Part shown: piece after piece, positions 12,109 to 64,000 of the stretch
Layout of the letters: each line of letters opens with the position of its first letter
Numbering within the stretch: position 1 is the first letter of the stretch
Source of the DNA: an uncultured Candidatus Saccharibacteria bacterium
GTDB lineage: Bacteria; Patescibacteriota; SICC01; CAYSOT01
Assembly: GCA_964432765.1 (NCBI GenBank)
Contig: CAYSOT010000001.1
Span: forward strand, 66,096-130,095
Length of the DNA: 64,000 nt
Direction: 5' to 3'
The notes under the pieces: generated by a model
What the model was told of the DNA's origin: nothing
What the model saw: the letters and a program-made list of their open reading frames with translations, nothing else
Database searches by the model: none
Position numbers and translations under genes: made by a program

Positions 12109-12183
12109 GGGTTTAGACGCCAAAGCGGCGCACATCAAGTATGCCGAGCTTCGGGATGAACCTCAAGCGTGCTGCCAACCTTG

Positions 12184-12255
12184 TAGCGGGGGCAGGACTC
12201 GAACCTGCGACCTCGTGGTTATGAGCCACGCGAGCTGCCACTGCTCCACCCCGCA
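12184..12255 (-). tRNA. Initiator tRNA-fMet (CAT)
   Basis: RC = TGCGGGGTGGAGCAGTGGCAGCTCGCGTGGCTCATAACCACGAGGTCGCAGGTTCGAGTCCTGCCCCCGCTA. It is very similar to E. coli tRNA-fMet (CGCGGGGUGGAGCAG...CCCCCGCAACCA). Position 1 is unpaired with 72, as expected for an initiator, and the anticodon stem carries G-C pairs. Confidence 0.85.
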
Positions 12256-12305
12256 TCGTGCGTACGTCGTACGGTACCTTATGGTACCTCCTCCATAGCG
12301 CTCTA

Positions 12306-12710
12306 TCAAGCGTTGTGACTACCAAAGAAGTAGCGCCACCATGCCTCTGGGTTCGACGGGGGCGGTGTTGGCTTTGTCTCGATTCCTGGACGAGTAAGGT
12401 TTGAAGAGTCATCACCTGTCGGCATCGGCACTACGATCACTCTCTCACCAGGTTTTTGATAGTTTAGTCTGGTCCGGGCTTCTTTTTCTTTAAACGAATC
12501 TGTTCGGTAATACGCGGTTAAGTTCTTAAGCTGGGTGTTTTGCTCTTCAAGCGAGCTTATCTCATTCTTTAGAGAAATTCTGTCTTGGTGAATTCTGTAG
12601 TTTTCAACGATCAGCTTTACCGACCCGAGCAGTAGATAGCCGATCACAATAAGAGCAAAGATATTGCCGGAACGTTGCCTGATCCATGAACTGATGTTTG
12701 ATTTCGCCAT
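12306..12710 (-). CDS. ftsB: Septum formation initiator (FtsB/DivIC-like) protein
   Basis: It has a single N-terminal TM helix (IFALIVIGYLLLGSV) and a coiled-coil segment ISLKNEISSLEEQNTQLKNLTAYYRTDSFKEKEARTRLNYQKPGE. The KEKEAR...LNY..PGE tail is typical of FtsB/DivIC. Confidence 0.65.
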   Translation of the reverse strand: MAKSNISSWIRQRSGNIFALIVIGYLLLGSVKLIVENYRIHQDRISLKNEISSLEEQNTQLKNLTAYYRTDSFKEKEARTRLNYQKPGERVIVVPMPTGDDSSNLTRPGIETKPTPPPSNPEAWWRYFFGSHNA

Positions 12711-12742
12711 ACGGCTCTAGCCTACACTACCGAATCGTCTTG

Positions 12743-12815
12743 TGGGCCCGCTAGGACTTGAACCTAGGACCTACCGGTTATGAGCCGGCTGCTCTAACCA
12801 CTGAGCTACGGGCCC
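12743..12815 (-). tRNA. tRNA with CAT anticodon, resembling tRNA-Ile2 (lysidine, LAU)
   Basis: RC = GGGCCCGTAGCTCAGTGGTTAGAGCAGCCGGCTCATAACCGGTAGGTCCTAGGTTCAAGTCCTAGCGGGCCCA. This is a good cloverleaf and is strikingly similar to E. coli ileX (GGCCCCUUAGCUCAGUGGUUAGAGCAGGCGACUCAUAAUCGCUUGGUCGCUGGUUCAAGUCCAGCAGGGGCC). The choice between Met and Ile2 identity is not certain. Confidence 0.8.
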
Positions 12816-12829
12816 GAATTGTATCTCCA

Positions 12830-13144
12830 TTATGCGACAGCATCGTCTCGTGTGGCAGTCCGCCACACCCACAACCCTAGCAGCGCCCCAACAAACGAAC
12901 CAATCAAGTTGCCGTATGTCAGCGGTCCGTTCGAGACAGCGATGCGAGCCTCAACGGCCATGAGATATCCTGCACAGATGGCGCTGAGTATGCCCACAAC
13001 CAAGAGTGCAGCTACACCACCTGTAGCTCTGCGCCTCGATAATAAATAGCTTAGAACTGCGGCCACTGCACCGCAGATAGACCAGCTAATCAGAAATGTT
13101 GTCATATTATTTAACGCTGTCCGCTTCGAGATAGACTTTCTCAC
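12830..13144 (-). CDS. Small membrane protein, GlsB/YeaQ/YmgE (transglycosylase-associated) family-like
   Basis: It has two or three Gly/Ala-rich TM helices (ISWSICGAVAAVLSYLL; ALLVVGILSAICAGYLM; IGSFVGALLGLWVW). The probable start is Met at about 13105. Confidence 0.45.
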   Translation of the reverse strand: MRKSISKRTALNNMTTFLISWSICGAVAAVLSYLLSRRRATGGVAALLVVGILSAICAGYLMAVEARIAVSNGPLTYGNLIGSFVGALLGLWVWRTATRDDAVA

Positions 13145-13679
13145 CCTTCAACTTGGCGGTCAGGGAAGAATCGTTGTCTGGCCAATTTTGTTCTGTTTTC
13201 CACGTTGCCAGCTGGTCCTTAAACTCAACTATTTTGCCACGAACTGTTGCCGACGAAGTCGGGATAGAATCTTTCCAGCGAACCCAAAGGTAGGTGCCAT
13301 CCTGATCTTGAAGAAAGAAGCCAACACCCTGAACTGGGTTGGTAACCTTACCCACCACATCAACGTTTTTGTCTATGAACTGGGTCGGGGACTTATTGAT
13401 ACCGGAGACGGTAGTGCTTGGTTGAGCGGCGGACTCTACTTGGACCGAAGGTGTCGGGGTGACGAGCTTCTGCTCAATTGCGCTGAGCCGATCGTTGATC
13501 TTCTGCAGATCTTTATCGCTCGAAGAACCATTTGGAATGATCGCGCTGATGATCCAACTGACTATCAAACCGACAACGATGCCCGCAATGAAAACATTTC
13601 GGACCCGGTTTGAGCTGGAATAGCGAGCTGCCGCCATGCCTGTACTATATCGCGAAGTGTTAAATTCTGCGATATCCAA
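13107..13679 (-). CDS. Membrane-anchored hypothetical protein (N-terminal TM, extracytoplasmic beta-rich domain)
   Basis: The TM helix is VFIAGIVVGLIVSWIISAII, followed by a hydrophilic domain. There is no recognisable catalytic motif. Confidence 0.45.
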   Translation of the reverse strand: MDIAEFNTSRYSTGMAAARYSSSNRVRNVFIAGIVVGLIVSWIISAIIPNGSSSDKDLQKINDRLSAIEQKLVTPTPSVQVESAAQPSTTVSGINKSPTQFIDKNVDVVGKVTNPVQGVGFFLQDQDGTYLWVRWKDSIPTSSATVRGKIVEFKDQLATWKTEQNWPDNDSSLTAKLKGEKVYLEADSVK

Positions 13680-38347: not shown

Positions 38348-38938
38348 ATGTCGACACAAAAACCATTTGTTGCACTCGTCGGGGGCCTTGCCTCCGGCAA
38401 ATCTACTACGGGAGCACTTGTTGCCAAGCATCTTGGCTGGAGCTTTGTGACAGAAAACTTTGAGTCACATCCATTTCTTCAAAAATTTTATGAAGATCCA
38501 CGTGCCTACGGCTTTGAAACTGAGTTAGCCTTCTTCGCCATACACGCGCACCAGTTGAACCTTGCTCGGAATACGAGGCCCCTGCTTACTGATTTTTCAA
38601 TTACAAATAACCTTCCCTACGCTGAAAACGTCGTCGATCGTAAGCACTTTGATTCGCTTATTAGGATTCACGATGCGCTACTTCAGCATGTCCCCGAGCC
38701 CGACCTAACAATATTTCTAGACGTTCCGCCGGAAGTACAGCTGGCGCGAATCAAGGAGCGAGGCCGTCATATAGAGCAGGGCGTCACACTTGATTACCTC
38801 ACACACCTCAGGCAAAAGTTCTTGGAGCATTTGGAACGTTTGCCAAGCTACAGCCGCATTTGCGTAAGCGCAACAGATACCCCGGAGCAAGTGGCAGCAA
38901 CGGTTGAAGCAGAAATACAACGATTCTCTCTTAACTAG
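38348..38938 (+). CDS. Deoxynucleoside kinase (dAK/dGK family)
   Basis: The P-loop is VALVGGLASGKST, an LID/ERxxR region is KERGRHIEQG, and the protein is 196 aa. Confidence 0.8.
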   Translation: MSTQKPFVALVGGLASGKSTTGALVAKHLGWSFVTENFESHPFLQKFYEDPRAYGFETELAFFAIHAHQLNLARNTRPLLTDFSITNNLPYAENVVDRKHFDSLIRIHDALLQHVPEPDLTIFLDVPPEVQLARIKERGRHIEQGVTLDYLTHLRQKFLEHLERLPSYSRICVSATDTPEQVAATVEAEIQRFSLN

Positions 38939-40125
38939 TAGCGCAAAAGCTTGTGCGCACCACCATTTTGCTGATCGTAAACGTACCTCTCGACTTCAGC
39001 GCGCCAATCTAAGTCTGTATCCGACAGGCGTACAATCTGCCCATCTCGCATAAAGTGCGGATTAATCACCCGCCGTTTGTGACGGATTGCCGTTTCGCGT
39101 GGATTGTCGAGAACTAATTGCGGCGCGAATGGATCATCCATTTGACGACGCAACCAGTCCAGCTCAGCATCAGAGGCGCAGAATGTCTGGAGGTGCTCAA
39201 GAAGCTCTGCTTCATCTACGTGATAAAGATCTTCTTCATTGATGTATGCCATCGCTATTGCATGACGAAGCCATTCCGTCGTAGCGCGATGAACCGCAAC
39301 ACTCCGATCACCCGTGTAGAAGTTTTCGTTTAAGAAGCTGAACGTTTCTGCCATTTCTCTGGCGTCTTCCCATGTTCGAAGCACCCAGGTAGGAACACCA
39401 TCTATCTCGCTAACCGTTAAACCGTCGATAATCTCTTGAGCCCTTGGAAGAGTAATAATTGTTCGGCCATACCGACTGCCTGAAACAGCGTCCCGACGCC
39501 AATAATCGATACGATCTGCACAGAGATCTGGCAAAGGGCGTTCCTGCAACGGATGCCGAGATAGATCGAGTACATTTTCAACTTCGATACCATACTCTGG
39601 ATGTGCGGCCAGAATTGTCGCGAGCTCCTGTCGTGCCTCTGAGGGAGTCTCCGCGTCAGCTAGACGGTCATCGTGGTGCGTTTGGTGAAGCGTGTCCTGG
39701 TGAAGATAGTCTATGCAGTGTGAGAAAGTCCCGTGGTCAGTATCATGCCATGCGCCTGCAAGCTGCTCTTCTCGACTAGCCCCGTGACGACGCAGTAGCA
39801 GCCACACGCCAATTGCGTGATCAAACCGCGTATGAGGGCCGACTTCAAGTGCTGCTAAGTAGCCCGGACGATGCCCGAGCTGGCTTATTTCGCGCTGCTT
39901 TTGAAAGCTTCGGGACCGAAGAATTGCTAAATCGAGCGGATCGCGAAAATCTGCAGGACCGTGAAACCAGTCGATGACCCTGATTCCACCATCGGCGAGC
40001 TCTATTTGCTTGGTAGTGTCGGGAAGTGATTTCTCGTCAAACGGACGCTCATACTCGGCGCGGGATTTTCCCCCACCTAACTCAGTTGTCGTTGACACGT
40101 TTTTCAGTATATCGGAGCTACCCAA
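38935..40125 (-). CDS. HD-domain phosphohydrolase (dGTPase-like family member)
   Basis: The HD motif is RFDHAIGV...AWHDTDHGTFSH...DYLH. The protein is 396 aa. It converges on the kinase gene with a 4-nt overlap. Confidence 0.65.
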   Translation of the reverse strand: MGSSDILKNVSTTTELGGGKSRAEYERPFDEKSLPDTTKQIELADGGIRVIDWFHGPADFRDPLDLAILRSRSFQKQREISQLGHRPGYLAALEVGPHTRFDHAIGVWLLLRRHGASREEQLAGAWHDTDHGTFSHCIDYLHQDTLHQTHHDDRLADAETPSEARQELATILAAHPEYGIEVENVLDLSRHPLQERPLPDLCADRIDYWRRDAVSGSRYGRTIITLPRAQEIIDGLTVSEIDGVPTWVLRTWEDAREMAETFSFLNENFYTGDRSVAVHRATTEWLRHAIAMAYINEEDLYHVDEAELLEHLQTFCASDAELDWLRRQMDDPFAPQLVLDNPRETAIRHKRRVINPHFMRDGQIVRLSDTDLDWRAEVERYVYDQQNGGAHKLLRY

Positions 40126-48468: not shown

Positions 48469-51400
48469 TCAGTGATGTTCTGGCATATGGAAGCGTCTGC
48501 GCACCTTTTCTGAAAGCCGCCGGAAAGCAATGTACATGATCGGAGAAACAAACAACGACAGGAAACCAGACGTAAGCAAGCCAAACATTACGACTACGGC
48601 TAGCGAGCGATAGAACGGAGCAAATACGGCCAGCGGCGTGAGTGAAAAAAGCGCCGTTAACTTAGTCAGAATGATTGGCCGGAAACGGATGCCGGAAGCG
48701 TAGGTAATCGCCTCTTTGTCGTCCCAACCATCGCGAACTTTGTGGTTCGCGAGGTCCATCAAGAAGATCGCCACATTTACGACGAGTCCGACAAGGATAA
48801 TCAGGCCTATAATCTCCAAGAAGCCAAACTGGCTACCACCAACGAAGGCGAGCGCTGGGAAGACGCCAATAAATGTCAGAGGGATGGCAAAGAGAATAAT
48901 CAGCGGCTGCAGAAGCGAGTTGAAGAAAATTACGAGGCTGAGGTAGATCAGCAATATTGCGAGCAGTAGGGCGAGCCCAAGCTCTGTAAACGACTTCGCA
49001 ATCGATGCGACATCACCTTCGGAGTAGTTTTCCACTACTACATCTCTGTACTTAGAAGCGTAGTCTTTCTTGAATGCATCAATCGCGGCTTTTTGGATCA
49101 TTGCGTTGGTTTGCTGATCATTAACATCGCCGGTTGGCTTGGCCTTAACTACTCCGACGGTTTCGCCTTTAACACGCGTTATTGAACCAAGTGACGGTAC
49201 TTGCGATATATTTGCGACGCTGCCCAGCGCAACCGCTTGACCGGTCAGTGTTGGGACGGGTGTCGCAGCAAGTGCCTCGATAGTAGTAGGCTGCGGTACA
49301 GCAAGCTTCACAACGACATCCAAATCTTCGCCAGTATCGTTGACGGTTGTTACCTTCTTCCCATCGTTGAGACCATACAGACTGGCGAGCGTTTGACGCA
49401 CTGCAAGCGGCTGAACTGGTATCGCGGCGGTCTTTGCTGGATCAAGCTTAACTTCTACAAACGTTACTGGTCTCGAATCAAATCCGTTGTCGACCCGCGC
49501 TACGGCCTTTTGGTCAGTTGGGCAGTCTGCCTTAACCACATATGATGAGCCCTCTTTACAGACCTGCGTGAGAATTGTGCCGAGATCTTTGGATACCGAC
49601 TCTTGTGTGGTTAGGTTCTCGGTCTTAATTCCTATCGAGATCGGGAAATTAGATGTACTTGGACCAGCTCCGGCAACACCCGAAGTGATCTCAAAGAATC
49701 TATTCTGAATTGAACTCTCCTTGAGACGCCCAGTTATGCCGTTGTTAATTTCTTCGGCAGAAATCTTTCGTTCGTTTAGATCCGTCAAACCAATCACGTA
49801 CGTGTTTTCACTCGGTGACGTGGCAAACTCTTGCAGAGGTGTAACGTAGCGCACCTCTGATGATTTCATGACCGCCTGCACTACGGCTTCAGTGTCTTGC
49901 CGTCGCTGCTCAGCGGTGCGTTGTGGATATGGAATTGTCGTGAGGATGAGATAGTTGGCTTCTTTTGATTTCGCGAACTGGACAATTTTTAGTGCACCTG
50001 TGCCGATCATGACCTGGGCTATTAGAACCGGAACTATAAGAGCGCTGATTACGATAAGTGATCGTTTCCATTTGGCTGAATGCAAAATCTTCTTGTTAGT
50101 TCGCATCATCCAGCGTGCTGCCGGCCAAAGATTCTCTTCTTCGGCAGTCTTCGCACCAGGTCGTCGGCGCAAGAATCGTCTCGCTACTGGAGCCAAGAAA
50201 ACCAGCGGAACTACGTATGAAGCAAGAATCGCCGGAATAACCGTCAGTGGAATATAGGAAATAATTTCACCAAAGACACCTGAAACGACGCCAAATGGCA
50301 CAAAGACGAGCGTCGAACAAAGAACCGCCATAAAGAGTCCACCACCGATCTCGTTGATTGCGGCGAGAACGGCTTTGGTTCCCTTCAGCCCAGCGTCCAC
50401 CTTACGCTGAATCACTTCCAGCACTACAAGTGCTGGATCAACCACCAGTCCAATCACCAGTACCAGCGAGAAGAGTACGAGTGTGTTGAGTTCATTGCCG
50501 GTAAGCCAAATCAGAATCGTCGAGAAGAAGAACGACAATGGTATCGCCAACGCTGAAAGAATTGCCGCTCGCCAGGAGACAAGCAGAAGCATGATTACAA
50601 AGACAAGCTGGATACCACCGAAGAGATATCCAACCCACCCAATTGGTCCGAGATTCCAGTCTCGACCAAATAGACCTGTTTTGATCTCTTTTACCTGCTC
50701 GCGATTATCCGCGGCCGTATCGAAGGCTGTAACCGTCTCATAGCCTTCTAGCTGTTGCTTCGTTTCTTGTGGGAGTGCTTGGTATTCCGAAGATGATTGA
50801 TCAAAGTACTTTTTCAGAAGCGCTTGCAGTCTCTCGTCATAAGTACCAAGGTTTTCTCCATCGGCTACGTCGATTGAGAAGATAACGCCTTGTGCGAATC
50901 GTTGTTCGCCATTTTGGCGATACCCAACCCATGAAAGATTCGGTTCTTCATAGGTGTATGTGTCCTGAATCGTGCCAAGATCACGAAGCGCGACGACACT
51001 GCCCGGCTTGGAGGGCGAAAGGATTGTCAAATTTCTTAAGTCGGTAACTGATGCTCCGCCCGTCGAAAGTAGGATGTTGGTTTCTTTGCCGTTTAGCTCC
51101 GCATTATCCGTAACGGGTATTTGCAAGCCGAAACCTTGCAGCTGTGAAGTAACATCGCTGGGTGAAAGCCCTGCCGCTGCCAGCTTGGCGGGATCCAGCG
51201 ATACGGTGTATTGTTTTTCAAACGTATTAGAGAAATTCACGGCCGCTACAGCTGTGTCTTTCTCTATCTCGCGCTGAAGCAATTTCGTGACTTGATATGC
51301 ACGTGCCAGATCGGCCTGACCATTCCTCGGCACTACTGCGAAATAGTATTCGTCTGAACTGACTTTCGGCGTGAAGATTGTCGGCTTTTCTGCACCATCC

Positions 51401-51792
51401 GGAAGCTTGAGCGACTTCACGGCCCCATCAATTTTTCCTGACAGTGAATCAACGGCGACATCTGGATTCGCGACTACTGAAATCGTGGAGCTGTTGTTCG
51501 AAGACGTCGACGAGTAAGACTTTACCCCGGAGATAGATTTAATTTCGCCTTCAATTGGCTTTGTCACGGTCTCCTGAACGGTCTGCGCAGAAGCGCCCGG
51601 GTACACCGTTTGAACAATCAGCAGGTCAAGTTTTGGAGAGGGGAATCCGGATGTTCGAAGCGACACAATCGAGAGCGACCCAAGAACCACTAACAGCATC
51701 AACAACATCGCTGTCAGGCGGGTGCGCCTCAGAAAGAACTGAGCGATGCGGGCGTTGATGCCGAGTTTGTCAGAAGGCTTCGTTTCGGCCAT
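48469..51792 (-). CDS. RND-superfamily / MMPL-type membrane exporter
   Basis: The topology is 12 TM helices with two large extracytoplasmic loops. The track ORF extends to 52059, but the likely start is Met 51792 (MAETKPSDKLGINARIAQFFLRR), which avoids overlap with the divergent sppA. Confidence 0.75.
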   Translation of the reverse strand: MAETKPSDKLGINARIAQFFLRRTRLTAMLLMLLVVLGSLSIVSLRTSGFPSPKLDLLIVQTVYPGASAQTVQETVTKPIEGEIKSISGVKSYSSTSSNNSSTISVVANPDVAVDSLSGKIDGAVKSLKLPDGAEKPTIFTPKVSSDEYYFAVVPRNGQADLARAYQVTKLLQREIEKDTAVAAVNFSNTFEKQYTVSLDPAKLAAAGLSPSDVTSQLQGFGLQIPVTDNAELNGKETNILLSTGGASVTDLRNLTILSPSKPGSVVALRDLGTIQDTYTYEEPNLSWVGYRQNGEQRFAQGVIFSIDVADGENLGTYDERLQALLKKYFDQSSSEYQALPQETKQQLEGYETVTAFDTAADNREQVKEIKTGLFGRDWNLGPIGWVGYLFGGIQLVFVIMLLLVSWRAAILSALAIPLSFFFSTILIWLTGNELNTLVLFSLVLVIGLVVDPALVVLEVIQRKVDAGLKGTKAVLAAINEIGGGLFMAVLCSTLVFVPFGVVSGVFGEIISYIPLTVIPAILASYVVPLVFLAPVARRFLRRRPGAKTAEEENLWPAARWMMRTNKKILHSAKWKRSLIVISALIVPVLIAQVMIGTGALKIVQFAKSKEANYLILTTIPYPQRTAEQRRQDTEAVVQAVMKSSEVRYVTPLQEFATSPSENTYVIGLTDLNERKISAEEINNGITGRLKESSIQNRFFEITSGVAGAGPSTSNFPISIGIKTENLTTQESVSKDLGTILTQVCKEGSSYVVKADCPTDQKAVARVDNGFDSRPVTFVEVKLDPAKTAAIPVQPLAVRQTLASLYGLNDGKKVTTVNDTGEDLDVVVKLAVPQPTTIEALAATPVPTLTGQAVALGSVANISQVPSLGSITRVKGETVGVVKAKPTGDVNDQQTNAMIQKAAIDAFKKDYASKYRDVVVENYSEGDVASIAKSFTELGLALLLAILLIYLSLVIFFNSLLQPLIILFAIPLTFIGVFPALAFVGGSQFGFLEIIGLIILVGLVVNVAIFLMDLANHKVRDGWDDKEAITYASGIRFRPIILTKLTALFSLTPLAVFAPFYRSLAVVVMFGLLTSGFLSLFVSPIMYIAFRRLSEKVRRRFHMPEHH

Positions 51793-51853
51793 ATGGCATA
51801 AGTTTAACGCAGCTAGAATTGTTTGTCCCCGTGGCGAAGGGTAGGATACCTGT

Positions 51854-52915
51854 ATGCGCAGCTTAGGAATTTTTGCGGCAAAGACAGCGATCGTCACGAT
51901 GGCGGCAATGATGGCTTTTTCCTTAATCGTGATTGTCCCTATCTTTCTAATCTTCGCGTTGCTTATCGCAAGCATTGGCGGTTCTGGTTCCGGCTCGACC
52001 AGCTTTGGGTCTGGCGGCGCTTCGCACACGTTTTTGGCAATTCCGGTCAAGGGCGTCATTGAAGGGACCGAAACTCAGTCTAATGACCCCTTTGGACTTT
52101 CCGACGAAAGCGTCGCGTATGGATATGCAATCAAAAGAGAGCTTTATCAGGCTGCGAAGAATGATTCTGTCGACGGCGTGGTGCTCGATATAGACTCCCC
52201 AGGCGGCACGATATACGGAGCTCGGGCAATTGCAGATGGAGTTGATCACTATAAACAGAAAACAAACAAACCCGTTTTTGCGTTTATTAGCGGGCTGGGT
52301 GCCAGCGGTGGATACTGGGCCGCCGCATCAGCAGATAAAATCATCGTTGATTACGGAAGCACCGTTGGCAGCATTGGAGTAATCAGTGGACCGTTCAAAT
52401 TCTACGACCGGCCAACTGCCGAAGACGGTGGAATTCTTACCGGGGGCATCGTAACTCAAAATGGAATTGAAACTGTCACCCTAACAGCCGGCAAGTCAAA
52501 GGATATTGGCAATCCTTACCGCCGTTTAACGGAGGGTGAAATCGCAACTCTGCAAACTGGCCTAAACAATGAATACGATGACTTTGTCTCTTATGTCTCG
52601 CAGAGGCGGGGTATCGATCAAAAAGTGTTGCGAGAACAGATTGGTGCTCTCATCTATGACAGCAAAACGGCAACTTCAATAAAGCTTACTGATGCCATTG
52701 CACCTCGCGAAGAAGCCTACGGTATGCTTGCCGATACAGCCGGTGTTCCGAGACGGGATTTCAAAGTCGTCGAGTCGTCATCGGGTAGTGGTACAGCTGC
52801 CATTGCGAGTAGTTTGCTTGGCAAAGAGAGGGAGTCCGACTCTTCTAGAAGCTGCTTTGAATCAACGATTCTGTTTGCCTTTTATGGCAACATCGACTCA
52901 ATCTGTAGTCGCTGA
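51854..52915 (+). CDS. sppA: Signal peptide peptidase SppA (S49 family)
   Basis: There is an N-terminal TM segment. Matching motifs are VVLDIDSPGGT and ISGLGASGGYWAAASADKIIV, with a Ser-Lys dyad. Confidence 0.8.
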   Translation: MRSLGIFAAKTAIVTMAAMMAFSLIVIVPIFLIFALLIASIGGSGSGSTSFGSGGASHTFLAIPVKGVIEGTETQSNDPFGLSDESVAYGYAIKRELYQAAKNDSVDGVVLDIDSPGGTIYGARAIADGVDHYKQKTNKPVFAFISGLGASGGYWAAASADKIIVDYGSTVGSIGVISGPFKFYDRPTAEDGGILTGGIVTQNGIETVTLTAGKSKDIGNPYRRLTEGEIATLQTGLNNEYDDFVSYVSQRRGIDQKVLREQIGALIYDSKTATSIKLTDAIAPREEAYGMLADTAGVPRRDFKVVESSSGSGTAAIASSLLGKERESDSSRSCFESTILFAFYGNIDSICSR

Positions 52916-53605
52916 TCATGTTCGCTTGAGCCCGGCTCTGGGCATCACACCGAACGTCAAAATAAGTGCTAAGAGAAGCGCAAAGCCGCACATAATCGAG
53001 GGCACCGCTATTCGCGTTGTGGCATTAATAACATTGACGAAAAACGTTGGTAGCAAGATGGCGAGATAGCCAACAAAGAGCCAGCGTGCAGCGGCTGACT
53101 TTTTCTCGCCCGCCATCATAGTTTGGTATGCGTACAACATTCCTATTCCAATGAGACCAAAGTAGTAAACACCGTACAGCAGATTTGCTGGATGCGCGAG
53201 CGTGAGAATTGTGTAATTGCCGGTGCATGCCACAGTCGTAATCGAAAATGGTAAAACTAGAAATAGTACGCACCAGACTGCGGCAAGAAAGAGTGAATAT
53301 CGCGCAACTTGTTCATCGCGCCCGGCCAGTGTCGTGGCAAGACGAATCCCCAGTGGCGGCAACAAGGTAATCGCAATATAGCCAAGTATCGCTACTGGTC
53401 TCGATGGTTCGATCAAACAAATGACATATTCTGCAAGCTGAAATGCTCCGAGTAGCACTAAGAGACCAAATACTGATGAGCCGATTCGGTCCATTCGGTA
53501 GCGGGTGTAGATCCAGCCAGCCAGCGCCCACTCAAGAAAGAAGGTAGCGAGCATCACGCCTGGTGAAAAGCACCAGACTCGAGCGTTTCCCCTAGCGGGC
53601 ATCAA
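52916..53605 (-). CDS. Polytopic membrane protein of unknown function
   Basis: It has about 7 TM helices and no recognisable motif. Confidence 0.45.
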   Translation of the reverse strand: MMPARGNARVWCFSPGVMLATFFLEWALAGWIYTRYRMDRIGSSVFGLLVLLGAFQLAEYVICLIEPSRPVAILGYIAITLLPPLGIRLATTLAGRDEQVARYSLFLAAVWCVLFLVLPFSITTVACTGNYTILTLAHPANLLYGVYYFGLIGIGMLYAYQTMMAGEKKSAAARWLFVGYLAILLPTFFVNVINATTRIAVPSIMCGFALLLALILTFGVMPRAGLKRT

Positions 53606-54474: not shown

Positions 54475-55464
54475 TCAGGCCGGCTTTTTAACGACGAAGC
54501 GCTGCGCTAGCTGACCCTTTTTGCCGTCCAGTTCATAGAGCGTATCTTCACACATTTCCCAACCGGGGAAGGCATGTTCAAGCTCTCCATACATAAATGG
54601 ATATCGACACTCTGAATCATCTCTCAGGGTGCCAAGCCAGCCTTCGACATACAGCATCCCTTGAGGTTTAAGTGCATCACCCAACTTTCGGAATGCCTCC
54701 ATCCGGAAAACTGGATCGAGGAAATGGAGCGAGTGCCTGGCAACGATACCGTCATATTCACGGGCAAGCTGTGTTACCTCAATTCTCGCTTGCAGTGTTT
54801 CAAACGGAATTCCGAGCAGTTTTTGGAGCTCAACGAGTCTGGTGTGTTCTCCCGTGTCTGGTTCCACTGCTGTAACTTGTGCTCCCTTTCTCGCCATTTC
54901 TTGGGTAAGCAGTCCCCAGCCAGCGCCAACATCAAGAATTCTTCCGCTTGAAAAATGCTCTGCATGCTTGCCAAGCAAAGACTCGCGCTCTGAAAGCGTA
55001 ATGGTCATAGGCGTTTCCTGATACAACCGATCTGTGCGCAGAAAGCGGTACCCGAGTTGCATCAAGTAGCTTCGCCCGAGGCTTGGCGGAAGATTGATTG
55101 CCACTGTATCAATGTCTCGTTCAGTCGCGGCAGCTTCTGCATGAAGTGCAGCGGCAATGTACGCGATACCATCAGGAGCCGGTTCAACTTCGTAGATATT
55201 CTGCACAAACGTGGCGGGCGACTGGAGCAAACTACCGTCTGGTAGTTCGCTAACTCCGTGGCGCAAATTAACCAGGAGCTGGGGGTTTACTTCTGGTCCA
55301 AGCCGGAGCACCTCGGTCCGCGGAAGCGACGTGTTTTCTGGCGGACGCCCCTCAGTAAATTGGCCGTGAGCTCGCCAACGTTCCATATCGGCATGACTAG
55401 CCATTATTTTGTCCTGGGCCACGTTCAATCGGCAGTCGAAGTAGCGAGTCAAGCATTTTTGCAT
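54475..55464 (-). CDS. Class I SAM-dependent methyltransferase with ~150-aa N-terminal extension
   Basis: Motif I ILDVGAGWGLLTQEMARKG, and a post-I acidic residue in VTAVEPD. The start may be Met 55404. Confidence 0.7.
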   Translation of the reverse strand: MQKCLTRYFDCRLNVAQDKIMASHADMERWRAHGQFTEGRPPENTSLPRTEVLRLGPEVNPQLLVNLRHGVSELPDGSLLQSPATFVQNIYEVEPAPDGIAYIAAALHAEAAATERDIDTVAINLPPSLGRSYLMQLGYRFLRTDRLYQETPMTITLSERESLLGKHAEHFSSGRILDVGAGWGLLTQEMARKGAQVTAVEPDTGEHTRLVELQKLLGIPFETLQARIEVTQLAREYDGIVARHSLHFLDPVFRMEAFRKLGDALKPQGMLYVEGWLGTLRDDSECRYPFMYGELEHAFPGWEMCEDTLYELDGKKGQLAQRFVVKKPA

Positions 55465-56158
55465 ACTCTTCCTCGCCCAGACCGGTGTCCGGATCCGCTA
55501 CAAGACTCCTAACATCGTGCTCGCCAACCGCAATTTCCAGGATCGGTCGATCATTAAAAAATGTGAAGCCGTGCATCATGGTGCCTGATTCTTTTGGAAC
55601 CAGCTCCGAGACTTGGCGATCTAACGCCCCCTCGAGAGGCGTATAAAGGTTAGATCCCAAATCAGAACGCAACGAATCGTGAATTACTAAGGGACTAGCT
55701 TGTGCTCTCCCGGCACGCGCTCCGTGCACTGCATGTGTTTCAGTTGGAAAGGCCCAGCAAAATCCGCTTTGATCAAACCTGAGGCCACCTCCTGATAAAA
55801 TTCCAAGACCGTGCGATTCGACCGCGAAAGGATCGGTTAAACCCTTTCCGAATGTGTGTCCGGCGTATTTAATTTCGCGAAAAACAACGAGCACCGGCTC
55901 GCCGGCATGAGCTCTAACCTGTGCATCCAAATTTCGGTACAGGTCTGCGACCTCTGGATCAAACCCCTCTACGCGACGAATCGAAAAGTCGAGTGCTTGA
56001 TCCCCGGTTGTTTCGCCATCACGTATACGTTCAAACAGCTCTCTATTGCGTTCGGCAACCAACGCTTCTGCCTCTTCTGTCTTTGCCTCGGCTGCCCCAA
56101 CCGCGTGCTGCGCGTCTCTTACCGCTTCGATAGCTCCATGTATTTCAGCGTCTGGCAT
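55397..56158 (-). CDS. Hypothetical protein (253 aa)
   Basis: It sits in an operon with the methyltransferase. No domain is recognised. Confidence 0.4.
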   Translation of the reverse strand: MPDAEIHGAIEAVRDAQHAVGAAEAKTEEAEALVAERNRELFERIRDGETTGDQALDFSIRRVEGFDPEVADLYRNLDAQVRAHAGEPVLVVFREIKYAGHTFGKGLTDPFAVESHGLGILSGGGLRFDQSGFCWAFPTETHAVHGARAGRAQASPLVIHDSLRSDLGSNLYTPLEGALDRQVSELVPKESGTMMHGFTFFNDRPILEIAVGEHDVRSLVADPDTGLGEEEYAKMLDSLLRLPIERGPGQNNG

Positions 56159-56224: not shown

Positions 56225-57856
56225 TTAGTGCGTTCGGGGCAAGCGGCAGGAACTGAAAACACCAAGCAGCCCGACTACTGCCAGCGCTATAACTGAGGCA
56301 GCAAGTGCTTTGTCGCGCGCCTGATCGTTGATCGATTGTACCTCGCTAACAACTTCCTGTGGTTGCCCCTCGAGGTAGGTATTGAGTTGCGCATCACTTA
56401 CTACTTCCACCTTTCCCTGCACCTTCGGCTCTAATTCTTGCTTCTGCGCGTCTGTAAGAACACTGCTCTGGGCAATGAGATTCTGGCCAGTCGTCGACAA
56501 GACAACTACCACAACTGAACCGGCCACGGCCGTACCAAGCGACCCGCCAAGATTCTGAAATGTAGACATGATTCCAGAGGCTTCGCTCGTTTGGCTAGGT
56601 CTTACAGATGACTGCACAAGGTTCATCAGCTGCGAAGCGACGAGCCCAATGCCAGTACCAACCAGCAGCATTGTCGGTATAAACTCGACCCCTGAAGCGC
56701 TTTTGCCAATATTTAGACCAGCCAGCACAACTCCGACTAAAATGACTACAAAACCGCTCTGAATAATGCGACGAGATGAAAACCTTGCAGCAATTCTCGC
56801 CCCCTGGCTCGCAACGGCTAGCACCGCGATCGAAAGCGGTAAGAGCGTTAAGCCGGTTTGGAATGCGGAATAGTTGAGCGCCACTTGCAAGAATAGCGAG
56901 AAGGAAAAGATAAGGCCTGCCATGACTACTTGCATGGCTAATTGTGTGACAGCTGCTGGACGAAGTGTGCGCTGAGAAAAAAGTTCTGGCGTTACGAGAA
57001 ATGGTTTCTTCAGGCGAAACCTTCTCCACTGCCACGCAATAAAGAAACCAAGAATCATAACTCCGAGCGCGACCGTCCAGATCACCGGGGAGATTCCGCC
57101 CTTACTGATAATCGTAGTGTTACCGAGCATGAAGTCTTGCCGTGCCACAAAGAAACCGTAGGTATTCGCCATCAGCACACCGGCAACAATTGTTGTCAAA
57201 CCAAGTGCAGACAGGATAAGTCCGATTGAATCGAAGCCTTTTGTGACAGTAGCCACCGGAGCGTCTTTTATAGAGCGACGGTTAAGAAGAACGTAGAGCA
57301 CGACAAGCACTTCACCGATAAAACCCCACCGCCAAGACGCGTACGTCGTCAGCAATCCACCCACGATAGGTCCTGCCGCTGCGCCAAGTGCGGCAATTGC
57401 CGCCAAAGTCCCATAGGCCTTTACTCGCTCGGCGCCCTCGCGGAAGTTACCAGTCACAAGAGACATCATTGCTGGGATAACAAGTGCGGCACCGACGCCC
57501 TCAAGAAACGACCAGCCAAAGATCAAAGTAGGAAGATTTTGGCTTAGTCCGGTGATAAACGATCCGACACCGTAAATCACCAGGCCGATAGTAAAGGCTC
57601 TTTTACGACCAATGATGTCGCCGATCTTGGCGCCAGCAATCATTAATGACGCCATAACAAGTGAGTAAAGGGTGATCGCTGATTGAATTCCGGTGACAGT
57701 CGTATCGAGATCTTTAACGAGTGTCGAAATCGACACGTTCATGAAGGTCGTATCTAGCGTAAATACGAACTGGGCCAAAGCGAGTAATAGTATTATTTGT
57801 TTCGAATTCATACCGCATTTATCGTGCGCGCAATTGCTGGTCGATTCAACTGCCAC
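56225..57856 (-). CDS. MFS transporter (DHA2-like, 14 TM)
   Basis: Motif A-like GDIIGRKR, multiple TM helices, and MFS-typical LDTTFMNVSI near the N-terminus. The start is probably Met 57811. Confidence 0.8.
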   Translation of the reverse strand: MAVESTSNCAHDKCGMNSKQIILLLALAQFVFTLDTTFMNVSISTLVKDLDTTVTGIQSAITLYSLVMASLMIAGAKIGDIIGRKRAFTIGLVIYGVGSFITGLSQNLPTLIFGWSFLEGVGAALVIPAMMSLVTGNFREGAERVKAYGTLAAIAALGAAAGPIVGGLLTTYASWRWGFIGEVLVVLYVLLNRRSIKDAPVATVTKGFDSIGLILSALGLTTIVAGVLMANTYGFFVARQDFMLGNTTIISKGGISPVIWTVALGVMILGFFIAWQWRRFRLKKPFLVTPELFSQRTLRPAAVTQLAMQVVMAGLIFSFSLFLQVALNYSAFQTGLTLLPLSIAVLAVASQGARIAARFSSRRIIQSGFVVILVGVVLAGLNIGKSASGVEFIPTMLLVGTGIGLVASQLMNLVQSSVRPSQTSEASGIMSTFQNLGGSLGTAVAGSVVVVVLSTTGQNLIAQSSVLTDAQKQELEPKVQGKVEVVSDAQLNTYLEGQPQEVVSEVQSINDQARDKALAASVIALAVVGLLGVFSSCRLPRTH

Positions 57857-58583: not shown

Positions 58584-59705
58584 CTATTTACTGAGTTCCG
58601 CTTGCGCTTTGAGCATATCAATCAAAGCTGAAAGTTGACTCGCGACCTTAACCTCGCCTGGAACATTCCTGAGGCTTTGTTCAGCCCTGGCCAGCAAGTC
58701 GGATATTCTTCGTCTACCGGCAGCAAGCGCACCTGTGGATTCAAAAAGATCGCTGACTTGCTCCACTTCAGGTTCCGTAATCGGTGAGCCGAGCCAGCCG
58801 CTTAGTTTTCGCTGCTGCGCAGGACTGCCATGATCAAAAACGTATTGTGTAAAGAAGGTGTGCTGATGCTCGCGAATATCCGAGTAGCGTGCTTGCACAC
58901 CCTTTGCACTGTCCCCGGTAAGGTCTTTGAGATCGTCGAGCATTTGAAATGCTTCACCTATTGCTTCTCCGAACTCGGAGCACCATTCTGCGAGGTCTGG
59001 GCTACCACCTGCCAGAGCAACACCTAGTTGCATCGGCCTGGTAAACGTATACCCAGCGGTTTTGAGTCTGGTTTTTCGCGCAACGATATCTGAAGTCACG
59101 GCCTGTCTGCTCATAGCATCGACGTCGACCATCTGGCCAACCACTACATCTTCGACCATGTTTTTGACTACTTTGTTAGCAGATTCTCGCTGCGTATCGC
59201 TAAACCCGTCGGCACTATTTAGGCGCTGCTGGGACCAGTAGAAAATGAGGTCGCCTACCAACATTGCTTGACCTTCGCCTATTTGCGATACATCTCCGAC
59301 TCGTCCTTCTTCAGCCATTCGTCGCGAAATTTCTACATGCAACGTTGGCTGACGATGTCTTACCGCGCTGTGATCGATGATGTCGTCGTGTATGAGGCAA
59401 AACGTATGAAAGAGTTCTACCCCTGCTGCATAGTGCATCGCATATTCAGTCTGCCTACCGCCCGTCGCTTCAAACATAACCATCAAAACGTATGGACGGA
59501 TTCGTTTGCCGTGAATAGCAAACGTTTCGAGCAAGTACTCAAAGTATTCATCCAGATACGGATCCTCGGTAGTTGAGCGTATCTCAGCAAGGTGTTTACG
59601 CAGGATTTTGCCAAAGACCAAATCGAAACGCTGCTTAAAATCATGTAGCGTTTCGCTTACCCCGTTACTTCGGGAAGAATCTTTTGCCTGCTCGTTGATT
59701 CTCAT
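58584..59705 (-). CDS. Polyprenyl diphosphate synthase (trans-isoprenyl diphosphate synthase family)
   Basis: The first DDxxD motif is CLIHDDIIDHS and the second is FQMLDDLKDL. Confidence 0.85.
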   Translation of the reverse strand: MRINEQAKDSSRSNGVSETLHDFKQRFDLVFGKILRKHLAEIRSTTEDPYLDEYFEYLLETFAIHGKRIRPYVLMVMFEATGGRQTEYAMHYAAGVELFHTFCLIHDDIIDHSAVRHRQPTLHVEISRRMAEEGRVGDVSQIGEGQAMLVGDLIFYWSQQRLNSADGFSDTQRESANKVVKNMVEDVVVGQMVDVDAMSRQAVTSDIVARKTRLKTAGYTFTRPMQLGVALAGGSPDLAEWCSEFGEAIGEAFQMLDDLKDLTGDSAKGVQARYSDIREHQHTFFTQYVFDHGSPAQQRKLSGWLGSPITEPEVEQVSDLFESTGALAAGRRRISDLLARAEQSLRNVPGEVKVASQLSALIDMLKAQAELSK

Positions 59706-59796: not shown

Positions 59797-60198
59797 CTAG
59801 GCAGCGACTGGAGCTGCTTGCTCTATACGCGTGAGCACACCAAAAATTCTGTCTGGTCCCAGGGTTCTTTCGACTGGATGTTTGTGGTGCGGTATCGGCA
59901 GAAATTGTGTTGCCAGGCCGCCATCCGGAGAAATCTTTACGACTCCACTAAGTGGCCGTTCGTTTCGATCCCAGAAATGGACTTCATAGGATCCATTGTC
60001 GCACTGATGAAGAGCTATTCTCCCTTCATCGTCCTCTCTACTGACCTGTATAAAATGCAAACCTCGCACCGCGTCGGTTACGGCAGAACTGTCTTCGCTT
60101 TGTTGCTCAAATGCGTCTTCGCAGACTTTTTTAAGGTCTGCAGGTGTTGCAGTTTCAGCGGTTACCTCGCGATCAACTGATTGAATTTCTGTGTCCAT
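59797..60198 (-). CDS. Hypothetical protein (133 aa)
   Basis: No motif is recognised. It has the same orientation as the two paralogous genes upstream. Confidence 0.35.
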   Translation of the reverse strand: MDTEIQSVDREVTAETATPADLKKVCEDAFEQQSEDSSAVTDAVRGLHFIQVSREDDEGRIALHQCDNGSYEVHFWDRNERPLSGVVKISPDGGLATQFLPIPHHKHPVERTLGPDRIFGVLTRIEQAAPVAA

Positions 60199-60248
60199 AA
60201 AACGAACCGTTGAATATCCTACTCCGAGAGCGGCAAAAGCAACAAGCC

Positions 60249-60779
60249 TTACTCACTTCCTTGTTCGATGAAGTGTGAACCTGCGACGAGGTCGGGAAGC
60301 GACTCTGCAAGTTCTGTAGCTGCCACCGAGCGACTCGTTTCGGCAGTGTCTACCACCCCAACCTGATATGGTTTTGCGAGCTCTGGATGTGAGTCAGGTG
60401 ATTGAGTTAAGACGGCTGCGTAGTGTTTTCCGTGCTCTGCAATACTGCCCGCCGGTCCTGGATCACCCCATTTTTGTAAAATAAGCGTATCTCCATTTGG
60501 CAATTCTTTTGTGAGCGTTATGCTTCGCCTGGTATAGAGCACTTTTCCACTCCGGGTTTTGTGTTCCCAGTCCTTTGCTGCACACCCTTCATAACGGTCA
60601 GGGTTAGTACCGGCTTGGGCTATTGCGGATTCAACTCCACCTTTTAGTGACTTTGTTGCTCGCTGTTCGCGTTCTCTTCGCTCCGCACGAGCAGCCTCCA
60701 CTCGGCTCTCGCGCTCTTGGCGTCGTTTATAGCCAGGCACAAATCGCTCGAATCCTCCTCGTTCTGGTGAAACACTCAT
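60249..60779 (-). CDS. Hypothetical protein, paralog B of tandem pair (charged N-terminus; conserved KWG and LPDLVA-x-x-H motifs)
   Basis: SGKVLYTRRSITL...LILQKWGDPGPAG...ELAESLPDLVAGSHFIEQGSE aligns with the upstream neighbour. Confidence 0.45.
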   Translation of the reverse strand: MSVSPERGGFERFVPGYKRRQERESRVEAARAERREREQRATKSLKGGVESAIAQAGTNPDRYEGCAAKDWEHKTRSGKVLYTRRSITLTKELPNGDTLILQKWGDPGPAGSIAEHGKHYAAVLTQSPDSHPELAKPYQVGVVDTAETSRSVAATELAESLPDLVAGSHFIEQGSE

Positions 60780-60802
60780 ATCTTTTCCTTATCGAAACTT
60801 AA

Positions 60803-61279
60803 TTACTCGCTTGCGTTTTGGATCATCTCCGATTCTGAGGGAATGTGGCCACGTGCCACCAAGTCTGGTAACTGCCGCGCCAGCTCACGCTGCTCATCCG
60901 TCCGATTTGTAGCAAGATCGGCAATGGCTATCTTCGACGCATCTCCGCCTTCGCCCGTCTTTAACAACACCGCACCGCGACAGGCGCCGCGCTCGTTGAT
61001 TCCATCCGCGGTGTCGTTGCTCGGGCCCCATTTTGCCAGAAAGAGTCGATCGCCACTTTCGGTAATGATAGTGCATTCTTGCTTGCGCATCACAATCGAC
61101 TGGCCACCAGATCGCATCGTCCAAACTTCTTCAGACGCGCCGGGGACGCGACGAAGATCGCGACCACAGCGTTCAAGGGACGCATCTACACCCTCAGTTA
61201 ACCCGCGCTGCTGGCGCTGATAATCAGACTCAACAGTGTGTTCTGGTTCGGGACTATCTGTTTCTGGATGAGTACTCAT
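60803..61279 (-). CDS. Hypothetical protein, paralog A of tandem pair
   Basis: SGGQSIVMRKQECTI...LFLAKWGPSNDTADG...ELARQLPDLVARGHIPSESE aligns with the downstream neighbour. Confidence 0.45.
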   Translation of the reverse strand: MSTHPETDSPEPEHTVESDYQRQQRGLTEGVDASLERCGRDLRRVPGASEEVWTMRSGGQSIVMRKQECTIITESGDRLFLAKWGPSNDTADGINERGACRGAVLLKTGEGGDASKIAIADLATNRTDEQRELARQLPDLVARGHIPSESEMIQNASE

Positions 61280-61325: not shown

Positions 61326-64000
61326 TCAAGCAGGAATAAGGGTTTTCCTCGAGCTTCTTGCCTGCCTTCGCGCTCTTTGGACTGTTGCGAGACGTTGGAT
61401 TTCACGAATGAGCAAAAAGAGCGCGGCTGCAGCGGCTGCAAAAGCCCAATCGATCAAAGACAATGGACCGGCGCCAAAATATGTATTGAGCGGCGAGTAA
61501 ATGATCGTTATGACACAGACAAGGCTGAGCGTCATGGCTCCCCAGAGAACTGCGTTATGTAATTGATAGCGACTAAACAACCCGTCCGGTGTACGGCGCT
61601 GCAAAATGTTGCCAAGCTGACACAGCACAATAGTGAGGTATGTCATAGCCGCCGCCTGCAGATGCAGAGCGCTCCCGCCCTGTAGAGCACTCGCCTCCAT
61701 TCCTCCCCTGCTAATCACACCCAGATAGTTAGCATAGGCGAGACCGCCGATAATAATTCCACACCAGAACAAATCAACAATATTCCACTTGCTCAAGATG
61801 TGGTCGTGAACATCCCGCGGTTCTTCATCAAGAAGATGACCATTCCCCCGATCCCAGCCAAGGGCTGCAATTGGAAATAACTCAGCAATAAGGTCGATCG
61901 CCAAAATAAGCATGACCGATATCGCGAGGGGTATGCCAAGCAGCGTCGCACAAGCAAGGCTGGTTAGATTTACAACGAGCTCTGCTGCGTTACTTGTAAA
62001 ACACGACAACGCACCCTTGTGAATATTTTGGTAAATCACCCGACCTTCCTTCACGGCACCGACCAGTGTATGGAAGCTATCGTCGAGGAGAATAATTTCA
62101 GACGATTGCTTGGCGACATCTGTCCCAGTTTTGCCCATCGCCACACCAATGTCCGCCCGTTTTAGCGCAGGTGCATCATTAATCCCGTCCCCAGTAACCG
62201 CAACTACATGGTCGTGTTCTTTTATAAGTGAAACGATTCGTAGCTTATGCTCCGGGCTCACCCGCGAAAAAATACACCCGCCACGCTCGATATAATGCAT
62301 AATCTGAGAATCGCTCATTGCATCAAGCTCATCACCCAGAACAACCGCTAGCTGAGACGGCTTACTCGCAAGCCCGGCCTTGATCGCGATAGCCTTGGCA
62401 GTCGGAGCAAAATCGCCAGTGATAATTGAGATTTTGATATGTGCGCGTCCTGCTTCTGCAAACGCCGCCGGGACTTCTTCGCGCAAAGGATCCATCATGC
62501 TGACCATGCCAAGCCACACAAGATTCTGCTCGGCATCAGGCATCTTTAAAGATGTATACTGCTCGTTATTGGTGAGCTTACGGTAGGCAAAACCCAGATT
62601 GCGTTTGGCTTGTTCTGCTCGCTGAAGATTGTAGTCCTGGATTAAACGTATTTGAGTTCGCTGCAGTTTCTTTTCTCCTGCCCCAGACTGCCAAGCAATG
62701 CATCGCTTAAGCACTTCTTCCGGAGCTCCTTTTACGAAGACATAGTATTCTCCGTCTATCTTCCGGATGGAACTCATCATTTTCCTGGCTGAATCAAAAG
62801 TAAACTCCTTAAGCTCTGGGGATGTTCGATCAAGCTCTGAAGGCTTTAGCCCCGCCTTGCGGGCAAGCGTGATGAGAGCACCCTCTGTCGGATCTCCGAC
62901 GCAGTACCAGGTTGCGTGCTCATCATCGGGTTCGTGTATCGAAGCATTGCTGGCATAGACTCCAGTTGCGAAGAAGCGTTCTAGTTTCGTAATTTCACTG
63001 GGTGATATTCGTTTACCGTCTTTTCTAATCTCGCCCTTGGGCTCATATCCCGTCTCAGTAATGGTGTAGATGTTTCCCTCGGCCATAAATTCATCAACGG
63101 TCATCTCGTTTTTTGTGAGAGTGCCTGTTTTGTCAGTACAAATCACGCTTGTCGCACCAAGCGTTTCTACCGCCGAGAGCTTTTTCACGAGCGCTCTGGC
63201 TCGCACTAATCGACCTGCCGCTTGGGCAAGCGCCGTATTAATCTCGGCCGGAAGTCCTTGAGGAATTATTGAGCTAGCAAATCCGATTGCAAACAAGAAT
63301 GCGTCTTTAATGCCCAGGTTGGCAGCAATCGCAATCGGTAACAGAAAAAGGCATAAAACGAGCGTCCCTATCGTTACACGTCCCGCGATGTGATTCATCT
63401 CTTTTTGCAGCGGCGACAATTCATTAGGCGTCGATTCACTCAGATTAGCGATTCTGCCAAGCTCGGTAGCCATGCCTGTCCCTACGACTACCCCAAAAGC
63501 ATGTCCTGTCGCGACAGTCGTACCCAAAAAAACAAGGTTTCCTCTGTTTCCCAGCGGAACTGTGCCGCTAATGGCGTGGGTAAATTTTCGACTCGGATTG
63601 CTTTCACCCGTAAGAGCAAAGTCGTTTGTCGACAATTCATATTCATCTATTACTCGAAGGTCAGCCGGAACAGCATCACCTTCTTCGATATAGACTATTT
63701 CGCCCGGAACAAGTTCAGATGCAGCAACTTCCTCGACTGCCCCTGCTCGCAAGACTTTAGCGGATGGTACGACGAGCTTCTCGAGAGATTCCATGATTCG
63801 CTCTGCCTTAAACTCCTGGGCGAAACCAATCGCCGTATTAAAGAGCACTAAGAATCCAAGCACCACAGCCGTACGAACATCGCCGAGATAGGCTGATAAG
63901 GCTGCGCTGACGACCAGCAGTAGAATAATGGTGTCTCGAAACTGTCGCAGGTACTTTCGAAGGTATGATTCCTTATTTACTTCGATTAGCCTGTTTTCGC
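61326..64000 (-). CDS. P-type cation-transporting ATPase (P2-type, Ca2+/Mg2+-like), N-terminus beyond window end
   Basis: CTDKTGTLT phosphorylation motif, TGDGINDAPAL hinge and PQGLPA transport motif. The reading frame stays open through 64000 (KYLRQFRDTIILLLVVSAALSAYLGDVRTAVVLG...), so the gene is partial. Confidence 0.9.
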   Translation of the reverse strand, partial: ENRLIEVNKESYLRKYLRQFRDTIILLLVVSAALSAYLGDVRTAVVLGFLVLFNTAIGFAQEFKAERIMESLEKLVVPSAKVLRAGAVEEVAASELVPGEIVYIEEGDAVPADLRVIDEYELSTNDFALTGESNPSRKFTHAISGTVPLGNRGNLVFLGTTVATGHAFGVVVGTGMATELGRIANLSESTPNELSPLQKEMNHIAGRVTIGTLVLCLFLLPIAIAANLGIKDAFLFAIGFASSIIPQGLPAEINTALAQAAGRLVRARALVKKLSAVETLGATSVICTDKTGTLTKNEMTVDEFMAEGNIYTITETGYEPKGEIRKDGKRISPSEITKLERFFATGVYASNASIHEPDDEHATWYCVGDPTEGALITLARKAGLKPSELDRTSPELKEFTFDSARKMMSSIRKIDGEYYVFVKGAPEEVLKRCIAWQSGAGEKKLQRTQIRLIQDYNLQRAEQAKRNLGFAYRKLTNNEQYTSLKMPDAEQNLVWLGMVSMMDPLREEVPAAFAEAGRAHIKISIITGDFAPTAKAIAIKAGLASKPSQLAVVLGDELDAMSDSQIMHYIERGGCIFSRVSPEHKLRIVSLIKEHDHVVAVTGDGINDAPALKRADIGVAMGKTGTDVAKQSSEIILLDDSFHTLVGAVKEGRVIYQNIHKGALSCFTSNAAELVVNLTSLACATLLGIPLAISVMLILAIDLIAELFPIAALGWDRGNGHLLDEEPRDVHDHILSKWNIVDLFWCGIIIGGLAYANYLGVISRGGMEASALQGGSALHLQAAAMTYLTIVLCQLGNILQRRTPDGLFSRYQLHNAVLWGAMTLSLVCVITIIYSPLNTYFGAGPLSLIDWAFAAAAAALFLLIREIQRLATVQRARRQARSSRKTLIPA

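Follow-up and report, generated by a model that had tools for sequence, protein, structure and literature searches.

Three small orphan genes, including a tandem paralogous pair, under purifying selection in an uncultured Candidatus Saccharibacteria bacterium

Introduction

What is encoded by three small genes that lie between a P-type ATPase gene and a polyprenyl synthase gene in an uncultured Candidatus Saccharibacteria bacterium, and do they belong to one of the module types known from other bacteria? The genes, here called A, B and C, are found in a stretch of 64,000 nucleotides (nt) (contig CAYSOT010000001.1 of assembly GCA_964432765.1, positions 66,096 to 130,095), which we refer to as the window. 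An initial annotation, made from the sequence alone, had listed them as co-oriented genes of 158, 176 and 133 amino acids (aa) in this position, and the open reading frames (ORFs) are present exactly as it described. It had furthermore found no recognisable motif in any of the three proteins, had taken A and B for paralogues with divergent, highly charged N-termini, and had named effector/immunity and partner-switching modules as precedents for such a pair. Judged by their substitution patterns, A, B and C are real protein-coding genes under purifying selection.

Results

For comparison, short-read assemblies and contigs from metagenomes supplied orthologues (loci L001-L003 and L007-L020). The copies can all be assigned to about four lineages, namely a window type (L001, L002, L011-L013), an L008/L009 type, an L003/L020 type and an L007 type (L007, L010, L014-L019). 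In pairs of orthologues, the proportion of differing nonsynonymous sites (pN) was 0.13-0.15 for A, 0.21-0.23 for B and 0.22 for C, as compared to proportions of differing synonymous sites (pS) of 0.72-0.77, 0.70-0.89 and 0.83, respectively. Synonymous sites were saturated in all of these pairs except for B of L003 versus L007, and this only unsaturated pair gave a dN/dS ratio of 0.096. Neighbouring genes showed comparable values (pN of 0.26 for the polyprenyl synthase and of 0.23 for a 253-aa protein), and the cluster diverges at about the rate of its slower neighbours. Because pN is far below pS in the called frames, the antisense ORFs that overlap the cluster can be regarded as shadows.

These values also bear on whether the three ORFs might be spurious or decaying, and thus without function. 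The absence of homologues outside a small clade and the loss of A in one lineage, both described below, would fit such a view, but we give it practically no credence: it is effectively refuted by the strong purifying selection that the called frame of each of the three genes shows in comparisons between lineages in which synonymous sites have become saturated. Furthermore, the ORFs are intact in three to four lineages, the fold of A is predicted confidently, and the promoter sequence upstream of the genes is conserved.

Gene A (60803-61279, minus strand) encodes a protein of 158 aa with an isoelectric point (pI) of 4.9, in which an acidic, Pro/Glu-rich N-terminal tail precedes a core with the invariant motifs KWG and LPDLVA. 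Gene B (60249-60779, minus strand; 176 aa, pI 7.0) encodes the same core behind a net-basic, Arg/Lys/Glu-rich tail that is 18 residues longer than that of A. Gene C (59797-60198, minus strand; 133 aa, pI 4.8) is an orphan unrelated to A and B, and it always lies directly 3′ of B. A and B are 30% identical, with 48% positives, over 133 residues (E=2e-14 in a single BLASTP comparison), and their alignment runs through the non-repetitive core, outside the charged low-complexity tail. They are thus true paralogues, as initially annotated, and not an artefact of low-complexity sequence. C was considered as a third, diverged paralogue and was ruled out (BLASTP E=31 against A/B; hhalign probability 0.45%), and further copies of A, B or C were not found in the window.

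Among the six members of the A/B family, 31 columns are invariant, including G76-D77, K83-W84-G85, A103-V104-L105 and L137-P138-D139-L140-V141-A142, and a further 31 fixed differences separate the A-type from the B-type. Of the motifs that the initial annotation had read from the pair, KWG and ELAxxLPDLVA are invariant in all six members, whereas the proposed "TI" is T-I in the A-types and T-L in the B-types, and the final His is absent from one B orthologue. The tails do differ in the way that had been described. Their net charge lies between -2 and -5 in A and between +4 and +5 in B in every lineage, and the B tail carries a conserved PG-x-KR-[RK]-QE motif that is followed by the Arg/Lys/Glu-rich segment. 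Both N-termini start with M-x-x-[S/H]-P-E, and we did not find M-x-x-S-P-E as an N-terminal signal common to other proteins of the window.

Orthologues are 78-80% identical for the A-types, 64-68% for the B-types and 65-67% for C. Because orthologues group by type while A and B are only about 30% identical to each other, the tandem duplication is older than the sampled clade. By this comparison of identities it is much older than the radiation of the clade, such that its outside relatives would be either unsampled or have lost the genes. The type-specific fixed differences and the oppositely charged tails indicate that A and B have subfunctionalised since the duplication.

The distribution of the genes is extremely narrow. 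A profile built from A and B retrieved six proteins, all of them members of the family, from 5.8 billion clusters in a word-indexed search, and C has three members in total among the same clusters (P0007, P0014 and P0015). An exhaustive HMMER profile search of 1.84 billion representative proteins gave only the A/B family and one weak match, P0008, a 1326-aa LPXTG-anchored adhesin with tandem repeats (E=6.5e-5). In this protein, four stretches of a repeated beta-hairpin unit (VTGDVLVHYVDK.GN) are matched to family positions 76-118, and we judged it to be a spurious, repeat-inflated chance match. Family members are unnamed or annotated as "hypothetical protein" in all sources. The family was not found in a scan of the genome collection, where relatives of the polyprenyl synthase were seen only in metagenome-assembled genomes of Actinomycetota, at 31-37% identity and without shared synteny. 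Neither was it found in the phage, plasmid and IMG/VR viral collections. Some of the source samples are metagenomes of Swedish wastewater treatment plants (PRJEB14051).

Between the window type and the L007 type, the ATPase is 88% identical, the DUF1761 protein encoded beyond the synthase 77% and the synthase itself 64%, from which we infer that the clade carrying the cluster is shallow, roughly at the level of a genus. The slot is fixed in all lineages, in the order ATPase-[A]-B-C-synthase-DUF1761 and inside a collinear chromosomal block. Gene flux is seen elsewhere in this block. The window has a major facilitator superfamily (MFS) transporter gene (56225-57856) where L014 has a peptidase S51 gene (12162-12869). 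Only in the window are the NfeD and flavodoxin genes separated by a large AcrB-like gene (48469-52059), in place of which L015 has just a short similar stretch (12144-12434). This AcrB-like ORF (1196 aa) has probably been called too long at the 5′ end, since it runs into the NfeD-like gene, which lies on the opposite strand.

The initial annotation had asked whether the genes are accessory or core, and the comparison of lineages gives a different answer for A than for B and C. B is found in all loci in which its position is covered (L001, L003, L007-L010, L012, L014-L020), and C likewise in every lineage with the position covered, while A has been deleted in the L007-type lineage. Here, about 165 nt are left between the ATPase gene and B. 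The 5′ flank of the deletion, including the promoter sequence, is identical to L003 at 104 of 106 positions. What remains of A is an ATG with an early stop, followed in another frame by "..LSELVAHGHVPASAEL", which is recognisably the C-terminus of A, "..LPDLVARGHLPSAAEM". The remnant is the same, letter for letter, in eight loci that stem from at least seven samples, Swedish wastewater plants among them. The deletion is therefore fixed in this lineage. B and C are intact and constrained where A was lost, which argues that they belong to the core of the clade and that A is dispensable. The whole family is thus limited to a small clade, and within it only one paralogue has been given up.

In agreement with the initial annotation, the three proteins have no recognisable motif: searches of Pfam, NCBIfam, PADLOC, PHROGs and PDB sequences were empty. 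Scans of A, B and C against the first four of these, and scans of each member at E<=10, gave nothing consistent. Matches to PDB entries by the sequence profiles of both families (ochratoxinase, E=1.5; a designed protein, E=0.56) are at chance level and were discarded. A and B, arranged in tandem, with Trp-Gly as a motif and with Pro-Glu conserved close to the N-terminus (M-x-x-[S/H]-P-E), recall the small paralogous or partner genes of the Esx/WXG100 and PE/PPE type. However, the core of A is rich in beta-strands and is not a helical hairpin, and the motif is K-W-G and not W-x-G. WXG100, PE and PPE matches in Pfam were found for none of A, B and C, and there are no type VII secretion genes in the window.

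Neither of the two precedents named at the outset was borne out. Partner-switching modules are characterised by a STAS-domain antagonist, a HATPase_c anti-sigma kinase and a PP2C phosphatase, and Pfam shows none of these domains in A, B, C or the adjacent genes. An effector/immunity module, a toxin-antitoxin system or another conflict module, with the paralogues as duplicates of an immunity-type protein and the effector encoded by C or a neighbour, would be in line with the small size and tandem paralogy of the proteins, with the presence/absence polymorphism of one paralogue and with the narrow distribution of the family. We nevertheless hold it to be very unlikely. There is no match in PADLOC, Pfam or PHROGs, no toxin or defence domain is encoded in or beside the cluster, and toxin, secretion and mobility genes were not found in its neighbourhood. 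The family is not carried by the phages, plasmids and viruses that were searched, and it occupies a fixed, collinear chromosomal slot with an ordinary rate of divergence and no diversifying selection. Moreover, A and B are cytoplasmic paralogues that share invariant polar residues, which points to a common activity and not to a toxin and its antidote. A type II toxin-antitoxin pair in particular was rejected, as such pairs consist of two unrelated proteins while A and B are paralogous, and the toxin-antitoxin families in Pfam and PADLOC gave no match. Of all features, only the loss of paralogue A in one lineage recalls accessory or immunity genes.

A, B and C are hydrophilic proteins with acidic cores and a grand average of hydropathy (GRAVY) of -0.8, and no transmembrane segment or signal peptide was detected in them (maximum 19-residue Kyte-Doolittle mean below 0.7). 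An AlphaFold2 model of A, computed from the six-sequence alignment, reached a mean predicted local distance difference test (pLDDT) of 82 and a predicted template modelling score (pTM) of 0.76, while the model of C, made from a single sequence, was unusable (pLDDT 40). In the predicted fold of A, a disordered acidic N-terminus is followed by a helix (19-38), a meander of five strands (48-57, 60-72, 78-87, 100-107 and 115-120), a helix containing LPDLVA (128-143) and a short terminal helix. When the sequence is read against this model, strands 3-5 carry hydrophobic residues on both faces, which suggests that one face of the sheet is buried by a partner. Foldseek searches with the model gave no significant match in PDB (0 at E<=0.001) or in the viral BFVD. 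The cassette thus lies outside every known sequence family that we searched and has no significant analogue among solved structures, and it is new in that limited sense.

Weak Foldseek matches include Bet v 1 and START proteins (Ara h 8, LlPR-10 and a Xanthomonas START protein). Like the model of A, these proteins of the SRPBCC type are of similarly small size and have an antiparallel sheet that is gripped by a long C-terminal helix. A and B might then be lipid- or isoprenoid-binding proteins of a "helix-grip"-like kind that work with the synthase and the DUF1761 protein and that, for instance, carry polyprenyl products or present them; the isoprenoid gene next door would be a conceivable origin of the ligand. 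Such a role is favoured by the gene order [A]-B-C-polyprenyl synthase-DUF1761, which all lineages share, and by the invariance of the long amphipathic C-terminal helix (L133, A134, L137, L140, V141). Yet the fold matches are non-significant (E >=0.035, template modelling (TM) score <=0.29), and Bet v 1 domains exceed the core of A by about 40 residues and have a first strand and two short helices that the model lacks. Pfam gives no match to the clan, and none to SRPBCC or START families even at E<=10. Common descent is enough to explain synteny at such a shallow depth (88% identity of the ATPase), the spacer between C and the synthase is not conserved, and the proteins are very hydrophilic. 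Taken together, we consider a helix-grip function unlikely.

Directly 5′ of A, a consensus scan found a match to a sigma-70-type promoter, P1 (61301-61329, minus strand), with TTGAAA and TAAGAT at a spacing of 17 nt and an extended -10 TG. Its -35 hexamer contains the stop codon of the ATPase gene. The block around it, cTTGAAAAA..AAAAAAGTGCTAAnnTAnGCCAATTAT (41 nt), keeps about 85% identity between lineages that have reached saturation at synonymous sites, and it is retained where A is deleted. The comparison thus speaks well for a functional cis element, presumably a promoter. P1 would imply a leader of about 15 nt for A that has no Shine-Dalgarno sequence, and B has an AGGA-type ribosome-binding site 7-9 nt upstream. 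An alignment of the B-C spacers from three lineages revealed another conserved block (60216-60245, minus strand; TTGTTG, 18 nt, TAGGAT), in which GGAGTAGGATAT is nearly invariant. This block could be a separate promoter or another cis element for C, though it is weak as a promoter because it falls below the threshold of the consensus scan. A scan for terminator-like sites between the genes found none.

The regulatory sequences are relevant for a possible link to the ATPase. The cluster lies directly downstream of the ATPase gene, with a gap of 46 nt to A, and is co-oriented with it in all lineages, and its proteins are acidic with many Asp and Glu residues. They might therefore be accessory or regulatory partners of this SERCA-type pump, for instance cytoplasmic cation-buffering proteins or regulators. 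We find this highly improbable. The cluster has a conserved promoter sequence of its own, the -35 element of which overlaps the ATPase stop codon, and no EF-hand, metal-binding motif or Pfam match was found in the three proteins. The known small partners of P-type ATPases, such as KdpF, phospholamban/sarcolipin and FXYD, are membrane peptides, whereas A, B and C have no transmembrane segment. Furthermore, conservation of the cassette (65-80%) falls far short of that of the ATPase (88%).

As to the surroundings of the cluster, the ATPase gene (61326-63866) is cut by the end of the window. Its orthologue in L007 has 933 aa and a Cation_ATPase_N domain, for which reason the ATPase of the window can be regarded as SERCA-like, type IIA. 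The polyprenyl synthase gene lies downstream of C (58584-59705), and beyond it follow, in this order, genes for a DUF1761 membrane protein, an MFS transporter, a 253-aa protein without a Pfam match and a methyltransferase. Both DDxxD motifs can be read in the sequence of the synthase, as DDIID and DDLKD, and the first of them is preceded by a Phe at a distance of five residues. By the textbook rules of chain length, this pattern goes along with short-chain (C15-C20) products. The gene for the 253-aa protein overlaps the start of the downstream methyltransferase gene, which suggests translational coupling of the two.

The rest of the window is ordinary chromosomal core, with genes for RodZ-like, FtsK, MurJ, FtsH and TilS proteins, a histidine kinase, SUF proteins, a 2-oxoacid:ferredoxin oxidoreductase, a flavodoxin and tRNAs, and the G+C content across the cluster (0.47-0.55) is the same as that of its surroundings. 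Four more proteins of the window are without a Pfam match, namely those of 253 aa (55397-56158), 229 aa (52916-53605), 190 aa (13107-13679) and 396 aa (38935-40125). In the L014/L015 lineage, the orthologues of the first two are 66% and 79% identical, respectively. The domains of two proteins are combined in an unusual way: in one, a CvpA (colicin V production) membrane domain is fused to CAP/SCP (8469-9476), and the other is RodZ-like, with a helix-turn-helix and a Glucodextran_B domain (505-1488). Within a few kb of the TilS gene (7156-8523), there is a cluster of three tRNA genes whose anticodon is CAT (12035-12108, 12183-12255 and 12742-12815). One of the three is presumably not a tRNA-Met, but the tRNA-Ile2 substrate of TilS, the tRNA-Ile lysidine synthetase.

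Discussion

How could a conserved pair of paralogues, one of which can be lost, act in these cells? The reading that we favour, though with low confidence, is that A and B are paralogous subunits of a cytoplasmic oligomer, assembled through their cores, in which B is indispensable and engages a polyanion with its basic tail, while the acidic tail of A modulates this interaction. Both would be soluble cytoplasmic proteins with an alpha/beta core of two helices and a five-strand meander. Assembly through the core would yield an A-B heteromer where both genes exist and a homomer of B where A was lost. B would be the functional core and able to act alone, as in the L007 type, with its Arg/Lys-rich helical tail contacting RNA or DNA or an acidic membrane surface. 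A would be a dispensable modulator whose acidic tail could mask the tail of B or compete with it. A and B would be transcribed from their own P1, and not solely by read-through from the ATPase gene. C would be a co-located third component or a mere neighbour, possibly with a promoter of its own.

An analogy for a pair of paralogues that share one extended sheet, and no more than that, is provided by the alpha and beta subunits of CapZ. These are likewise separate paralogous proteins, and in each of them an antiparallel sheet of five strands is likewise combined with a helix and with a long C-terminal helix, after which comes a short terminal one. However, the CapZ subunits have 270-286 aa and an additional N-terminal bundle of three helices, they are eukaryotic and bind actin, and they show no sequence similarity to A and B. 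An obligate A-B heteromer as in CapZ is argued against by the loss of A in one lineage.

Several observations weigh against the oligomer with its polyanion-binding tail. CapZ subunits are the top Foldseek matches of the A model in PDB, but the matches are not significant (E of 6e-3 to 0.1, TM scores of 0.21-0.27 and root-mean-square deviations (rmsd) of 12-16 A; for the best one, E=5.7e-3, TM score 0.23 and rmsd 16 A). Of the five AlphaFold2 models of A, only two were confident, with a pLDDT of about 62 for the other three, and the alignment behind them comprised six sequences. The interaction between A and B is itself hypothetical. A evolves more slowly than B (pN of 0.13-0.15 versus 0.21-0.23), which is an uneasy fit with a role of A as a mere accessory. 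Charged tails are common in unrelated proteins. The weak resemblance of one B member to PF11438, the arginine-rich RNA-binding peptide of lambda N, would favour an RNA contact, but it is at chance level (E=0.46).

A more far-reaching version of the oligomer proposal is that A and B represent a fold family that has not been seen before and form a clade-specific two-subunit complex with a charge switch, in which the acidic tail of A gates the RNA- or membrane-binding tail of B, with C as the third component. This would be speculative and is unlikely.

In several respects, the cassette resembles other orphan families of uncultured bacteria. Its proteins are short, hydrophilic and unnamed, and they have no homologues beyond one shallow clade in the 5.8 billion clusters and 1.84 billion representatives searched. 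Unlike many orphan families, however, A, B and C show clear purifying selection, an ancient internal duplication, a confident fold prediction for A and a conserved promoter sequence. Provided that the predicted fold and the orphan status stand, this would be a cleanly delimited, taxonomically restricted family that is constrained and hence functional. The "dark" proteome of bacteria from wastewater and the environment would then gain another uncharacterised fold. Furthermore, a family that has duplicated, subfunctionalised and lost a copy, all within one shallow clade, would then be a tractable case for how lineage-specific genes arise and become integrated.

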